64,000 nt of DNA. It comes from an uncultured Acidobacteriota bacterium (GTDB lineage: Bacteria > Acidobacteriota > Vicinamibacteria > Vicinamibacterales > 2-12-FULL-66-21). The notes beneath the pieces are model-generated. The model was not told where the DNA came from, ran no database searches, and was given only the letters and a program-made list of their open reading frames with translations. The DNA is taken from NCBI GenBank assembly GCA_963820645.1, contig CAWGAS010000031.1, forward strand, positions 156,984-220,983, read 5' to 3'. The position numbers were made by a program, and so were the translations under genes. Of the stretch, positions 43,382 to 50,776 are shown in pieces (position 1 is the stretch's first letter; each line of letters begins with the position of its first letter).

Positions 43382-43488
43382 GGGTTCCGCTGGGTTCCAC
43401 CGGGTTCCTCGGGGTTCCACGGGGTTCTGTTCCACGGGGTTCCACGAGGTTCTAGGTTCTAGGTTCTAGGTTCTTCCGGGTTCGGGAA
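43382..43488. repeat. Class F repeat unit (GGTTCC-N3-4 tandem), solitary arm
   Basis: gggttccgctgggttccaccgggttcctcggggttccacggggttctgttccacggggttccacgaggttctaggttctaggttctaggttc. About 85 % similar by eye to 48485-48575 and to the reverse complement of 49165-49262. Confidence 0.8.
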
Positions 43489-45880: not shown

Positions 45881-47794
45881 CTAGACGTCCAGCTCCTCCG
45901 CTTCCTCGGCTCGATCCATGATGAACCGGAAGCGCGCGGACGGGTCCTTGCCCATCAGCTCGTTGATGACGCGGTCGGTGACGATCTGATCGAGGATCTC
46001 GACCCGCAGCAGCCGCCGCGTCCGCGGGTTCATGGTCGTTTCCCACAGCACCTTGGGCATCATCTCGCCGAGCCCTTTGAAGCGCGTGATCTCGGGATTC
46101 GATCGGCCGTTCCCGTGCAGCTTCAGCAAGCGGTCCCGATGCGCGTCGTCGAGCGCCCAGAACGTCTCCTTGCCGACATCGATGCGGTAGAGCGGCGGCT
46201 GCGCGAGGAAGATGCGGCCGGCGGCGATGAGGCCGGGCATGTGGCGGTAGACGAACGTCAGCAGGAGCGTGGCGATGTGATGGCCGTCGGAGTCGGCGTC
46301 GGAGAGAATAATGACGCGCCCGTAGCGGAGCCTGGCCAGGTCGAAGCTCTTGCCGAGCCCGCAGCCGAGCGCGGTCACGAGGTCGGACAGCTCCTTGTTC
46401 TCGAGCACCTTGGCGAGCGACACGCTCTCGGTGTTGAGCACTTTGCCGCGGAGGGGCAGGATCGCCTGGCGCGTGCGATCGCGTCCCTGCTTTGCCGATC
46501 CACCGGCCGAGTCCCCTTCGACGATGAACAGCTCGCTGTCCTCGCGGCCGGGAGACGTGCAGTCGCTCAGCTTGCCCGGCAGCGTGAGGCGGCCGGAGGT
46601 GGCCGTCTTGCGCGCGACTTCCTGCTGCGCGGCGCGGCTCGCCTCGCGCGCCCTGGCGGCGAGGATCACGCGCGCGACGATCGACTCGGCGATGGTGATG
46701 TTGGTGTTGAGCCAGTGCTCGAGCGCGGGACGCACCTGCGAGTCCACCGCCGACATCACCTCGGGGTTGTTGAGCCGGTCCTTCGTCTGCCCCTGGAACT
46801 GCGGCTCGGCAACGAAGACGCTCAGCACCACCACCAGGCCTTCGCGGATGTCTTCGGCGGTCAGCGTCACACCCTTCGGGGACAGGTTGTGGGTCTCGAT
46901 GAAGTTGCGGACAGCTTTGCCGAGCCCGGCGCGGAAACCGTTCTCGTGCGTGCCGCCCGATCCCGTCGGGATGCCGTTCACATAGCTCCGCACGTGCTCG
47001 TCGGTGGACTGCGTCCATTGCAGCGCGAGGTCGAGCCGCAGGCCGCTGTCGTCGCCGTCCTTGGACAGCGTGAACGCCGCATCGTGCACCGGCGTCGCGG
47101 TCCGCTCGCGCAGGATGGTCTTCAGATAGTCGACGAGCCCTTCGGTGTGCTGGAAGACGTGCTTCTCGCCCTTCGTCTCGTCCTCGAAGACGATCTTGAC
47201 GCCCTTGTGCAGGTAGCTCGAGACCTCGAGCCGCTGCTTGATGATCTCCGCGTCGAACTCCACCTTCGGAAAGATCGTCGTGTCCGGGCGGAAGAACACC
47301 GTGCTGCCCGTCCCGCGCGCGGCGCCGTTCTTCTTCAGCGCCCCGACCGCCTTCCCTTGCTTGAACCGCATCTCCCACTCGGCGCCGTCGCGCCGGACGG
47401 TGGCGACGAGCTCCTTCGACAGCGCGTTGACGACGCTGGCGCCGACGCCGTGGAGGCCGCCGGCGGTCTTGTAGCTCGCCGCGTCGAACTTGCCGCCGGC
47501 GTGGAGCGTCGTGAAGATCACTTCCAGCGCGCTCGTCTTCGTCTTGGCATGCTTGTCGACCGGAATCCCCCGCCCGTCGTCCGCAATCGAGATCGACGCG
47601 CCATCCTCGTGCAGCGTGACGGTGATGTTCGACGCGTGCCCGTTCATCGCTTCGTCGACGGAGTTGTCGAGGATTTCCCACACGAGATGGTGCAGCCCGG
47701 TGGATCCGACGCCGCCGATGTACATGCCGGGACGCTTGCGAACGGGCTCGAGCCCTTCGAGGACGGTAATATCTTTCGCGGTGTATGTGGCCAT
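45881..47794 (-). CDS. Type IIA DNA topoisomerase subunit B (GyrB/ParE family)
   Basis: Intact 637 aa. LEGLEPVRKRPGMYIGG, HHLVWEILDNSVDEA, GGLHGVG, ELFIVEGDSAGGSAKQGRDR, PLRGKVLN, IILSDADSDGHHI. Confidence 0.9.
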   Translation of the reverse strand: MATYTAKDITVLEGLEPVRKRPGMYIGGVGSTGLHHLVWEILDNSVDEAMNGHASNITVTLHEDGASISIADDGRGIPVDKHAKTKTSALEVIFTTLHAGGKFDAASYKTAGGLHGVGASVVNALSKELVATVRRDGAEWEMRFKQGKAVGALKKNGAARGTGSTVFFRPDTTIFPKVEFDAEIIKQRLEVSSYLHKGVKIVFEDETKGEKHVFQHTEGLVDYLKTILRERTATPVHDAAFTLSKDGDDSGLRLDLALQWTQSTDEHVRSYVNGIPTGSGGTHENGFRAGLGKAVRNFIETHNLSPKGVTLTAEDIREGLVVVLSVFVAEPQFQGQTKDRLNNPEVMSAVDSQVRPALEHWLNTNITIAESIVARVILAARAREASRAAQQEVARKTATSGRLTLPGKLSDCTSPGREDSELFIVEGDSAGGSAKQGRDRTRQAILPLRGKVLNTESVSLAKVLENKELSDLVTALGCGLGKSFDLARLRYGRVIILSDADSDGHHIATLLLTFVYRHMPGLIAAGRIFLAQPPLYRIDVGKETFWALDDAHRDRLLKLHGNGRSNPEITRFKGLGEMMPKVLWETTMNPRTRRLLRVEILDQIVTDRVINELMGKDPSARFRFIMDRAEEAEELDV

Positions 47795-47880
47795 CAGTTG
47801 GTGGGGACCGGACGCAGCATCGGTGAATGGTACCAGAACTTTGACATTTCTCAGTCGAGGCCGCAGCCGCAGTCACGATT

Positions 47881-47950
47881 TACAGGAGGTCAGGAGAGCA
47901 AGAGGTTTTTTTCAAAGACAAAATTACTCCTGATCTCCTGATCTCTGTTT
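47881..47950. repeat. Tandem-armed palindrome, class E
   Basis: tacaggaggtcaggagagcaagagg, then loop tttttttcaaagacaaaatta, then ctcctgatctcctgatctctgtt. Confidence 0.85.
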
Positions 47951-48004
47951 TCTTTCACAGGCAAACATGCTGGTTGGATACTCTTAGACTCGCGGAATCA
48001 CGCT

Positions 48005-48505
48005 ATGCCACACGACACTGAAATCGATCGAATCCTGGACCAGCTCGCGCGGGAGCACGACGGCGATCCCTGGCACGGTTCGCCGTTGCGGGGCATCCTG
48101 AAGGGAGTGACTGCGGCGGCGGCCAGCGCGCGGCCCATCGCCGGCGGGCACTCGATCTGGGAGCTCGTGCTTCACATGACCGGCTGGAAAAATGAAGTAC
48201 GGCGGCGGCTCTCGGGAGCGCCGGCGAAGACGCCTGAAGGAGGAGACTGGCCGAAGGCCGGAGAGCCGACCGAGGCTCGATGGCAGGAGGCGCGCGAACG
48301 CCTGCAGCAAGCGCACGACGATCTCCTCAGCGCCATCCGTGCGCTTCCGGAAGAAAAGCTGTACACGCCCACGAACGATCCGCGCAGCAAACCGCTCGGC
48401 ACTGGAGTGTCGTACTACGTCCTGCTGCACGGCCTCGTCCAGCATGACGTTTATCACGCCGGGCAGATTGCGATTCTGAAGAAGGGTTCCGCTGGGTTCC
48501 GCTAG
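48005..48505 (+). CDS. DinB family protein
   Basis: Intact 166 aa. DPWHGSPLRGIL...HSIWELVLHMTGW...VQHDVYHAGQIAILKK. The last codons are supplied by the class F repeat. Confidence 0.8.
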   Translation: MPHDTEIDRILDQLAREHDGDPWHGSPLRGILKGVTAAAASARPIAGGHSIWELVLHMTGWKNEVRRRLSGAPAKTPEGGDWPKAGEPTEARWQEARERLQQAHDDLLSAIRALPEEKLYTPTNDPRSKPLGTGVSYYVLLHGLVQHDVYHAGQIAILKKGSAGFR

Positions 48506-48575
48506 GTTCCACGGGTTCCGCAGGGTTCTGTTCCACAGGGTTCGACTGGGTTCTAGGTTCAGGGTTCAGGTTCAG
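48485..48575. repeat. Class F repeat, left inverted repeat of the four-helix-bundle cassette
   Basis: ggttccgctgggttccgctaggttccacgggttccgcagggttctgttccacagggttcgactgggttctaggttc, followed by ggttcagg tandem copies up to about 48610. Confidence 0.8.
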
Positions 48576-49024
48576 GGTTCAGGTTCAGGGTTCTCGGTTC
48601 CGGGTTCCTGAGGTTCGGGCTTCGGCTTGGCTCGCGGCGGTGTGAACGGTTTCTTGCGGCCGCAGCGGCGCAAGTACTTGTGGAGCCGATTGCTCGCGCG
48701 AAGCGCGCGACAGGCAAGTCGCCAGGCATCGGTGAAGTCTTCCTCCGTGAAATACTTCTTGTCGCGGCCGTGGATCAAGTGGTCCTGCGTCTCCGATAGC
48801 GAGCTGCGGGCGATGTTCAGGAAGTGCGCGAACTCGGGCGGATCGAAGCGGGCGAAGCCTTCCGCCATGTTCCGCGGAGCGGAGCAGGCGGAGTCGCGGA
48901 TTTGATCCCGGAATCTGAAGTCCTTCAGTACCGGTCCCTGCTCGATCATCCGACAGACGAGATCGCGCAGCTTCACGGCGACCTGCCAGCAAATCAAATC
49001 CTCGAATCGCTTCGCTACGGCCAT
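48572..49024 (-). CDS. Four-helix-bundle protein (TIGR02436 / 23S rRNA IVS protein / Avd-like family)
   Basis: Intact 150 aa. FEDLICWQVAVKL...IRDSACSAPRNMAEGFARF...FLNIARSSLSETQDHL. The C-terminal tail PKPEPQEPGTENPEPEP is encoded by the repeat. Confidence 0.8.
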   Translation of the reverse strand: MAVAKRFEDLICWQVAVKLRDLVCRMIEQGPVLKDFRFRDQIRDSACSAPRNMAEGFARFDPPEFAHFLNIARSSLSETQDHLIHGRDKKYFTEEDFTDAWRLACRALRASNRLHKYLRRCGRKKPFTPPRAKPKPEPQEPGTENPEPEP

Positions 49025-49164
49025 GCCGCCCGAGGTGCAGAGGGCATGCCGAGTAAATTCCTTAGAGAATCGAAGTGTTCAGTCGAAAAGATCGCAGATT
49101 CGTCGTCATCAGTCAGGCGGGATGGTGGCGTTTTCTGCCACCCTCGTGCGCGGCGCGGAGCGCC

Positions 49165-49262
49165 GAACCAGAGGAACCGAACCTAGAACCTAGAACCCAG
49201 CGGAACCTCGTGGAACAGAACCCTGCGGAACCCCGTGGAACCCTGTGGAACCTTGCGGAACC
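49165..49262. repeat. Class F repeat, right inverted repeat of the four-helix-bundle cassette
   Basis: Its reverse complement, ggttccgcaaggttccacagggttccacggggttccgcagggttctgttccacgaggttccgctgggttctaggttctaggttc, aligns along its whole length with 48485-48575. Confidence 0.8.
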
Positions 49263-49263
49263 T

Positions 49264-50673
49264 TTAGTCGAGCAACATCGCAGACGGATCTTCTACGAGC
49301 TGCTTGATCCGAACCAGGAACTGAACCGCCTCAGCCCCGTCGACGATCCGGTGATCGTAGGTCAGCGCGACGTACATCATCGGCTTGATGACGACCTGGC
49401 CGTTCGCCGCAACGGGACGCTGCTGGATGGTGTGCAGGCCGAGGATGCCGACCTGCGGCGGGTTGAGAATCGGCGTGCTGAGCAGCGAGCCGAACACGCC
49501 GCCGTTGGTGATGGTGAACGTCCCGCCCTTGAGATCGGCGAGCGACAGCGACCCGTCTTCCGCGCGCTTCGCGAAGTCGCGGATCTGCCGCTCGATCTGC
49601 GCGAACGACATCCGGTCCGCGTCGCGCAGCACCGGCACGACGAGCCCTTCGCTCGCGCCGACGGCGACGCCGATGTCGTAGTAGTGCTTGAGCACCATCT
49701 CGTCCCCCTGGATCTCGGCGTTGATCCGGGGAAACGCGCGCAGCGCGCCGATGGAGGCCTTGACGAAGAACGACGCGATGCCCAGTCCGACGCCGTGGCG
49801 CTCCTTGAACGCCTGCTTGTGGCGCTCGCGCATCGCCATCACGGCCGACATGTCGACTTCGTTGAAGGTCGTGAGCATCGCGGCGGTGCTCTGCGCCTCG
49901 AGAAGCCGCTTGGCGATGGTCGCGCGCCGCTTCGACATGCGGATGCGCTCTTCGGTGCGATCGCCGGGCACGGCGCGCGGCTCCGCGATGGGCGCGGCAG
50001 GTCTCGCCTTCGCTGGCTCGGGCGTCGAAGGCCCCGCCTTCGCCTGGGGATCTCCGGCAGGCTTCGGCGCGGCAGGTTCCGCTTTCGCCTGGGCGGCAGC
50101 CGGCTCCGGCGGCGCACCGGCCTGGTCCGCCGATGCGGCGCTCTGACCGTTTCCACCGCCGGCAGCCGCCTGCTCGACGTCCCGCCGCATGACCCGCCCC
50201 GCGTCGCCGCTGCCGCGCACGCGGCTGAGATCGACGTCGCGATCTTCGGCCGCCTTCCGCGCGGCCGGCGTCGAGCGCGTCCGTTCGGTCGCCGGCTTCT
50301 GATCCGATTCCGCGTGCTTCGCTTCCGGCTGAGGCTCTGCCGGCTGCGGCGCGGCATTTTCCAATGCTCGCGGGGCCCCACGCCCACTCGCTCGCGCCTC
50401 ACGGCTCGAAGACTCGCCGTCGGCGCGGGCCGCAGGCGCTGCGTCCTCGACCACTCCCAGCACATCGCCGACCTTCACGTCGTCGCCATCCTTGCGGCCA
50501 ATCTTGAGGACGCCTCCCTGCGGGGCCGCGACCTCGAGGTCAACTTTGTCCGTCTCGAGCTCGACGAGCGGATCGCCGACCGACACGGCGTCCCCTTCCT
50601 TGCGGAGCCACTTCGCCACGCGCGCGTCCACGATGGACTCGCCGACTTCCGGGACGACTATGTTCGACGGCAT
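49264..50673 (-). CDS. sucB: Dihydrolipoyllysine-residue succinyltransferase (2-oxoglutarate dehydrogenase E2)
   Basis: Intact 469 aa. Lipoyl domain ([13 protein letters not shown]), Ala/Pro-rich linkers, PSBD ([22 protein letters not shown]), catalytic domain ([15 protein letters not shown]). Confidence 0.9.
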
Positions 50674-50685
50674 GCAGAGTCCTCA

Positions 50686-50776
50686 GTCTCGGGTCGGTCT
50701 CGGGTCTCGGGGTCTCAGGTCTTTGGTCTTCGTCTTGGGTTTCGGATCCCGAGTCCCGAGTCTCGAGTCCCGAGAC
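50686..50776. repeat. Tandem-armed palindrome, class B
   Basis: agtctcgggtcggtctcgggtctcggggtctcaggtc...atcccgagtcccgagtctcgagtcccgagac. It lies between sucA and sucB. Confidence 0.85.

Follow-up and report, generated by a model that had tools for sequence, protein, structure and literature searches.

A four-helix-bundle gene between inverted arrays of a dispersed repeat word: an intervening-sequence-like cassette between protein-coding genes of an uncultured Acidobacteriota bacterium

Why should a small gene, from a family first noticed in the intervening sequences (IVSs) of 23S rRNA, lie between two protein-coding genes and be framed on both sides by inverted copies of one dispersed repeat? 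The question is raised by a locus in a 64,000-nt stretch of DNA (hereafter the window; contig CAWGAS010000031.1, positions 156,984 to 220,983, assembly GCA_963820645.1) from an uncultured Acidobacteriota bacterium of the order Vicinamibacterales, whose genome (G000) is available as a 6.58 Mb assembly of 56 contigs that is 70% complete. Here, a gene for a four-helix-bundle (4HB) protein of PF05635/TIGR02436 occupies the loop of a long inverted repeat, the two arms of which are built of short GGTTC-based words and are termed class F units in the following. PF05635/TIGR02436 is a very large orphan family, for which rRNA intervening sequences and a kinship to the Avd protein of diversity-generating retroelements (DGRs) have been the sole functional clues so far. 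The answer we favor is that the locus is an IVS-type cassette of gene plus arms in which the arms may be the cognate target of the enclosed protein, a reading that we hold with belief and doubt in about equal measure.

Broadly speaking, the cassette consists of an arm, a leader, a gene and a second arm. The 4HB gene (48572-49024, minus strand, 150 aa), identified as an open reading frame (ORF) with a hidden Markov model match, is preceded by a leader (49025-49164, minus strand) that stretches from the 5' arm to the start codon and, as the initial annotation had remarked, is lower in GC content (0.60 vs. 0.68 for the genome). The 5' arm in gene orientation is the right class F unit (49165-49262, C31:206148-206245), with the signature GGAACAGAACC among its 11 GAACC words, and the 3' arm is the left unit (48485-48616, C31:205468-205599), with 16 GGTTC words including GGTTCTGTTCC. 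Of the unit bounds proposed initially, those of the right unit stand, but on the left the GGTTC run extends to 48616, not 48575. Because the run reaches that far, the end of the 4HB ORF is itself encoded by the inner left arm, which holds the stop codon (48572-48574) and the last ~15 codons (a tail from about residue 136), while the outer 83 nt of the unit pair with the right arm. The arms are complementary over 84 nt at 85.7% when gaps are allowed (48485-48567 with 49179-49262, 87 bits, E-value 1e-21, BLAST) and over 55 nt at 89% without gaps (48513-48567 with 49179-49233, inverted-repeat search), whereas the best inverted repeat in each of 300 random genome spans of 300-450 nt scored 41 bits at most (median 19.9).

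On both sides the arms abut coding sequence, which agrees with the earlier description of a cassette filling the gap up to the sucB stop. The right arm ends at 49262, 1 nt before the stop codon (49264-49266) of a co-directional gene for a sucB-like E2 acyltransferase (49264-50673, minus strand, domain match) immediately upstream of the cassette, and the stop codon (48503-48505) of a gene convergent with the 4HB gene (48005-48505, plus strand) lies inside the left arm. This convergent neighbor, initially called dinB, is by its domain match a DinB_2-superfamily gene (PF12867) and not DNA polymerase IV. When folded in silico, the sense RNA of the cassette reached -377.6 kcal/mol (z = -9.1 vs. shuffles), the arms pairing along their full length around a loop that holds the ORF, so that the likeness to rRNA IVSs first seen in the geometry of the locus, a gene in the loop of a long inverted-repeat stem, is confirmed. 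The leader contains a hairpin of its own (GGTGGC-GTTTTCT-GCCACC, 7-nt loop, 49124-49142), the loop motif of which, GCAGAAA(A)C on the sense strand, is common to orthologous class F cassettes, those of other genera included, and persists in the gene-less loop of locus L064. An Rfam scan of 47700-49600 at E ≤ 1 returned only chance matches, with no rRNA or other family, and a scan for sigma-70-like promoters and terminators found none within the cassette.

The protein belongs to the 23S-IVS four-helix-bundle family, as had been proposed from the sequence. The 4HB ORF matches PF05635 (23S_rRNA_IVP; E-value 2.7e-23, 82.7 bits, cut-off 33.8) over residues 8-100 of its 150 aa, and TIGR02436 (“four helix bundle protein”; E-value 2.6e-20, 72.6 bits, cut-off 24). 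PF05635 is its sole domain match, and no transposase domain was detected. The nearest solved structure is that of XCC0516 (PDB 2GSC, E-value 5e-11), a pentamer of four-helix bundles, with SAPRNMAEG of our protein aligned to SIPSNIAEG in the S...N.AEG family motif. Evolutionarily, non-synonymous over synonymous substitution rates (dN/dS) over the domain range from 0.03 to 0.19 against orthologues, with a dN of 0.004 and a dS of 0.14 between G000 and G004 of the same genus, which clearly points to a functional gene under purifying selection.

The design of a gene between inverted word arrays is a hallmark of the PF05635 family. To quantify it, the upstream and downstream flanks of each gene (450 nt each) were compared for the best inverted repeat linking them, and a locus was considered bracketed from a threshold of 35 bits. 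Among relatives of the same order, 44 of 51 PF05635 loci (86%) reached this threshold, and in 43 of these 44 the repeat across the gene beat any palindrome within a single flank, as compared to 3 of 250 small genes of G000 (1.2%, with 1 of the 3 beating its within-flank palindromes) and 1 of 300 random sites (0.3%). The arms were always tandem arrays of a short word, which differed by locus (e.g., AGCTTCC, CAGTTRCC, GGGATYC, GTGCCACG, ACGTGCT or GGGACTC); alignments of such repetitive arms are ambiguous in register. Bracketing was found at ~17 of 28 loci in a phylum-wide sample, and at 70 further loci from many phyla 21 reached 35 bits and 28 reached 30 bits, vs. 0 of 63 shifted controls. It extends to plasmids, where 9 of 10 loci (from Nostoc, Anabaena, Picosynechococcus, Geminocystis, Stanieria, Calothrix, Riemerella and Azospirillum, i.e., Cyanobacteriota, Bacteroidota and Alphaproteobacteria) had inverted arrays of ~7-nt words 9-60 nt from the ORF.

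Several of these plasmid genes are wedged into operons, in the orders cas10-4HB-cmr3 and cas6-4HB-cas4: on plasmids of Anabaena sp. 90 and Picosynechococcus PCC 7003 (L147 and L148), the gene pairs cas6 and cas4, and cas10 (cmr2) and cmr3, enclose a 4HB gene with inverted heptamer arms, the gaps being 35-45 nt. PF05635 genes have been recorded inside cas loci (PMC3936711), and such wedging may explain the “CRISPR-associated” score of the family in published surveys. When mapped on the protein tree, the arm words appeared clade-specific and gradually drifting (e.g., from CAGCTNT to CCAGCTT to CCAGTTT), with GGTTC-based words confined to one group of neighboring protein clades. In the open-access full-text literature, no paper was found that links PF05635 genes to inverted word arrays outside rRNA.

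Within the genome, the arms belong to a large dispersed family: where three class F units had been listed initially, a word-cluster scan retrieved ~88 half-units genome-wide, at ~50 loci besides the cassette. These include 33 closed, gene-less palindromes (a GGTTC arm, a 0-74-nt loop and a GAACC arm, 143-243 nt in length, folding as RNA at between -63 and -167 kcal/mol) and ~19 solitary half-units, one of them in the window (43383-43483, plus strand, 11 GGTTC words, no partner arm nearby), which upholds the solitary unit noted there before. The single pair with a long interior (548 nt) is the cassette described here. A class F unit (~95-130 nt) is laid out as about four GGTTCCRCNN decamers, the GGTTCTGTTCC signature, one or two further decamers and a variable GGTTC(W)G tail, a layout that the two cassette arms each follow in full. 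The closed copies typically start 1-7 nt past a stop codon, a position that the cassette matches, and 16 of the 33 lie between convergent genes vs. 22% of all intergenic gaps (binomial p-value ~5e-4, computed by hand from the counts and based on crude GC3-based gene calls).

Only two PF05635 genes were found in G000, and the second (L002, G000:C11:16709-16858), which matches model positions 1-52, i.e., the first half only, within a 112-aa open frame, is likewise bracketed, here by inverted arrays of the heptamer GGGACTC, and so withstands one of the two refutation tests named in the initial annotation. This heptamer is dispersed at ~57 loci, also as closed palindromes, so that both 4HB genes of the genome have arm words that occur as closed palindromes elsewhere. 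The commonest words of G000 in a Tandem Repeats Finder census are AGCTTCC (131 loci) and CCTGATCT (123 loci), and AGCTTCC forms the arms of a 4HB clade that sister species have but that was not found in this incomplete assembly. The window itself contains further word arrays, of the GGGACTC class just upstream of sucB (~50747-50774) and of the form (GAACCAA)n at ~21643-21694.

What, then, are the arms selected for? Across class F, neither the GGTTCC core nor the GGTTCTGTTCC signature varies, and the R and NN positions vary freely and uncompensated. The form of the core is the same in the cassette arms and genome-wide: it is GGTTCC in G000 and G004 (167 and 316 double-CC matches) and GGTTCT in G001, G007, G014, G015, G012, G003 and G019 (0-11 CC matches of 51-318). 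Within G000, complementarity of class F arms to their own partner (median 0.81) is no higher than to arms of other loci (0.82), with the cassette at 0.87 ranking 5 of 34, and the arm mismatches of 68 gene-oriented cassettes (86 of the sense G·U type, 75 of the antisense G·U type and 173 transversions) display neither a G·U excess nor a strand bias (p-value 0.43). On these two grounds we rejected the idea that the arms are kept complementary by local compensation, and they argue that selection does not maintain pairing as such. The pattern of conservation is instead that of words arrayed for recognition, and not that of a stem preserved pair by pair; a stem of 84 nt, ~85% complementary, would form all the same.

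This bears directly on the best surviving alternative, in which structure is everything: the arms would be a hairpin that terminates or stabilizes convergent transcripts, an RNase III cut would release or silence the 4HB mRNA, and the protein would have no relation to the words. Such a role is consistent with the strong predicted fold and its end-to-end pairing, with arms that abut both neighboring stop codons, with the enrichment of closed class F copies between convergent genes and directly past stops, and with the RNase III excision experimentally demonstrated for ORF-bearing IVSs (PMC4990558). However, a structural constraint is at odds with the missing partner-arm compensation and with the missing G·U bias, and it leaves unexplained both the bracketing of 86% of PF05635 genes vs. 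~1% of other small genes and the way in which the words follow the protein clades. We consider this explanation unlikely.

The history of the cassette was traced by a search with the 4HB protein in 26 genomes of the genus. It retrieved 12 orthologues or close paralogues (L034-L044 and L058, 37-97% identical), all of which carry GGTTC(+)...GAACC(-) arms, vs. none of ~45 other, more distant PF05635 loci. In eight genomes of the genus, the cassette lies between sucB and gyrB, the latter (45881-47794 in the window, minus strand, domain match) being the other conserved border of an otherwise variable interval; in G010 it is found next to gyrB, and the same gap is filled in 4 further genera. Elsewhere, cassettes occur by a thiolase gene (G014, 64% identical), by an ABC transporter (G013 and G022) and at another site (G021), and the sucB-gyrB gap of these four genomes is without a 4HB gene. 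The gap lacks the gene in 12 genomes of the genus (9-477 nt) and holds short or degenerate spacers, palindromes or a solitary arm: a small closed GGTTC palindrome in G008, a solitary GAACC arm filling the gap in G021, and a ~290-nt palindrome of another word (GAATCC.../...GGGATTC; L094:1204-1500) in G014. Gaps of 9-150 nt also belong to this series. A comparison of this junction among relatives, which had been suggested at the outset, thus recovers the gene with its arms, the empty site, the gene-less closed palindrome and the solitary arm, so that the locus withstands the second refutation test as well.

One sister pair connects two of these states, as the gene-less G035x retains both arms and a ~70-nt loop with the leader motif AGTATCGCAGAAAC of the filled G082x, with no ORF. 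Because its loop retains a fragment of the leader, the G035x site is an internal-deletion derivative of the cassette. Overall, the presence of the cassette at sucB-gyrB is unclustered relative to shuffles on a gyrB+sucB tree of 32 genomes, and requires 9 parsimony changes, of which at least 6 are forced by well-supported branches. Gene and arms are a heritable unit that is relocated or lost as a block, and the arms are copies of a dispersed family of 3'-end palindromes. Two side observations concern the interval itself: it hosts different word classes in different species (G014 vs. the others), and DinB_2, which within the genus is present at this locus in G000 and G004 only, enters or leaves it and changes orientation between genera (L062, L064, L068, L072, L073, L076, L084, L090 and L098).

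Next in plausibility comes an insertion targeted to loops, in which an armless segment of leader and 4HB gene would insert into the apices of pre-existing class F hairpins akin to repetitive extragenic palindromes (REPs), the arms then belonging to the target. That each arm of the cassette is a complete, ordinary class F unit, that the G008 site holds a closed palindrome and that helix tips are where real rRNA intervening sequences are located (PMC4990558) all fit such an event. Yet the same protein clade always comes with GGTTC-type arms at four genomic contexts, and loop insertion would therefore need word-specific targeting, which is again a relation between protein and word. In addition, the gene-less sister site, with its leader fragment, is an internal deletion and not an untouched target, no defined ends or duplications of the inner segment were seen, and arms and gene always co-diverge here. 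Taken together, these points make loop insertion improbable.

The remaining two explanations are both very improbable. Chance nesting or local duplication, i.e., a small gene that happens to lie between two independent half-palindromes, draws on the abundance of palindromes of at least 8 word classes in the genome and on the existence of solitary half-units, but is effectively refuted by the controls (86% of PF05635 loci bracketed vs. 1.2% of small genes and 0.3% of random sites), by the 43 of 44 loci in which the cross-gene repeat exceeds within-flank palindromes, and by a design conserved in all orthologues and across phyla. An invertible switch, with recombination between the ~95-nt arms flipping the gene and turning its expression on or off, is suggested by gene orientation, since in G000 and G004 the 4HB gene runs the same way as sucB and gyrB, and in seven other species of the genus it is antisense to both. 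We rejected a flip of the interior between the arms, as the whole block of DinB_2 plus cassette is inverted relative to L072, with the 4HB gene convergent with DinB_2 in both; this block inversion explains the layout of G000 and G004, no invertase gene lies nearby and orientation is fixed within lineages, so that a switch is very hard to credit.

We thus return to the IVS-type cassette, under which the locus would be one functional PF05635 gene with its own pair of inverted word arrays, forming a single genetic unit. Gene and arms would be inherited, relocated and lost together, as the orthologues show, and gene-less palindromes of the same word would include internal-deletion derivatives of cassettes, as seen in the one sister pair. 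The enclosed 4HB protein would read the words of its arms, each protein lineage having a word of its own, in the manner of the REP system with its REP-associated tyrosine transposase (RAYT) or of NTS/Ssn; whether our protein is such a cognate reader of its own word array we regard as close to an even call. When co-transcribed, the arms would form a ~84-bp stem, a putative RNase III substrate that may insulate the insert from host transcripts. With only 1 nt separating the sucB stop from an arm, a sucB transcript that is not terminated must run through both arms, and by analogy with rRNA IVSs it is plausible that RNase III processes transcripts that contain both. It is tempting to speculate further that 4HB oligomers read word arrays sequence-specifically and somehow propagate them, that each protein lineage co-evolves with a word of its own, that the ~90 class F units are the REPIN-like population of this one gene, and that the intergenic heptamer and decamer palindromes of Acidobacteriota, Xanthomonas, Geobacter and cyanobacteria, along with ORF-bearing rRNA IVSs, represent one system; this broader extension is tentative, and we are inclined to doubt it.

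A number of observations weigh against the cognate-target interpretation or temper it. We know of no nucleic-acid binding or catalytic activity of stand-alone PF05635 proteins. The initial idea of a mobile cassette is borne out indirectly, by at least 4 contexts and at least 6 gains or losses at one site, but no movement was observed directly, no insertion event or recombinase was found at the locus, and the outer arm ends (AAGAAG...TTTAGT) have no target-site duplication. The class F copies differ from each other at the free positions and are therefore not recent copies of one master, and the even distribution of arm mismatches over the G·U types of both strands counts against a stem selected in the RNA. 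The genes and sites that served as inverted-repeat controls came from G000 alone, with crude gene calls. A count of repeats that tracks gene presence is suggestive, but phylogeny and the fragmentation of assemblies confound it, and we did not accept it as a test; three genomes with 55-67 class F matches show no orthologue (in fragmented assemblies), and no 4HB gene for the two most abundant word classes of G000 was found in its 70%-complete assembly.

A further difficulty comes from a motif, GATCGTARCAYG, that is conserved just inside the 5' arm of several orthologous cassettes (L035, L036, L037, L038, L040 and L058) and absent from the window at 49140-49164. On the opposite strand, it reads as an extended -10-like element (TGYTACGAT) that faces outward through the arm to gyrB, the start of which lies as little as 15 nt past the arm (L035). 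The transcription of gyrB may thus begin within the cassette in these species, and the repeat arm may serve as the 5' untranslated region. Because the 4HB gene is antisense to its neighbors and the -10-like motif points outward, most orthologue mRNAs may lack the 5' arm, which also argues against a role of the stem in these transcripts.

Through the joint inheritance, movement and loss of gene and arms, the locus ties a dispersed repeat to a protein family that is still an orphan, and suggests a possible origin of the pervasive word-array palindromes in these genomes. A single conserved junction provides a natural series of filled cassette, internal-deletion derivative, closed palindrome, solitary arm and empty site. 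The words also define a candidate ligand, (GGTTCCRCNN)n (e.g., GGTTCCACNG), for which the GGTTCT arrays of sister species (e.g., GGTTCTAC) constitute a natural specificity control. If the link between protein and word is true, it would give a joint account of intergenic heptamer arrays, of 4HB genes wedged into operons and of the intervening sequences of rRNA, and could yield programmable repeat-binding proteins.

How does this cassette compare to known systems? The closest in architecture are the ORF-bearing 23S IVSs of Leptospira and Coxiella, which are patchily distributed and, on an old proposal, mobile by means of their ORF, and of which the S23p IVS of Coxiella burnetii holds an ORF of the same family looped out from a 28-bp stem, has tandem GACAGAT heptamers and is excised by RNase III (PMC4990558). 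Our cassette shares with them a PF05635 ORF that is looped out from a long stem of terminal inverted repeats, short tandem repeats next to the ORF and a patchy distribution, but it lies between the protein-coding DinB_2 and sucB genes instead of in an rRNA helix, its arms are ~3 times longer, are built of decamer words and have relatives of the same family at ~50 other loci of the genome, and its ORF is under purifying selection whereas that of Coxiella is decaying. Although the geometry is IVS-like, identity with an rRNA IVS was rejected, as the cassette is not in rRNA. Gene-less intergenic heptamer arrays, such as GGGAATC in Xanthomonas and GGGGAYT in Nostoc (PMC4692102) and those of Geobacter metallireducens (PMC2700814), resemble class F in being tandem short words, often in convergent inverted pairs, in intergenic positions and with copy numbers of ~4-5 or more. 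They differ in that class F has a period of 10 and one gene-bearing copy, and neither paper makes a link to PF05635.

Other small genes associated with nucleic acids or repeats provide partial parallels. Avd of DGRs is a pentamer that binds nucleic acids and the reverse transcriptase (PMC10053308), and the four-helix-bundle fold of bAvd (PDB 4DWL) is homologous to that of our protein. We rejected a DGR Avd, with no linked reverse transcriptase or template/variable repeat pair at the locus; the single RVT_1 gene of the assembly (G000:C47:76872-77513, 629-aa open frame) is unlinked to either 4HB gene. In NTS/Ssn, a small gene is framed by a repeat of which hundreds of copies exist, and the encoded protein recognizes that repeat (PMC11893778). 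Ssn is a GIY-YIG single-stranded DNA nuclease, whereas PF05635 is without a nuclease fold and recognition by the 4HB protein is a prediction. As in transposons with terminal inverted repeats (TIRs) and miniature inverted-repeat transposable elements, a gene-less internal-deletion derivative exists (G035x vs. G082x) and presence is polymorphic (at least 6 changes), but both a TIR element and a RAYT were rejected, as no transposase and no target-site duplication were found.

The population structure, by comparison, is that of REP/REPIN-RAYT systems: one class F-armed gene per genome, largely vertical and flanked by inverted copies of a dispersed repeat, the other copies of which are hairpin-forming doublets after genes, with each gene lineage having its own repeat. 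The differences lie in the protein, here a small four-helix bundle and not an HUH/Y1 (IS200/IS605-like) transposase, for which activity on repeats is not known, and in the repeat, here a tandem word array with free spacers and not a fixed ~20-nt palindrome. The cassette is thus IVS-like in its geometry, and REPIN/RAYT-like in its population structure.

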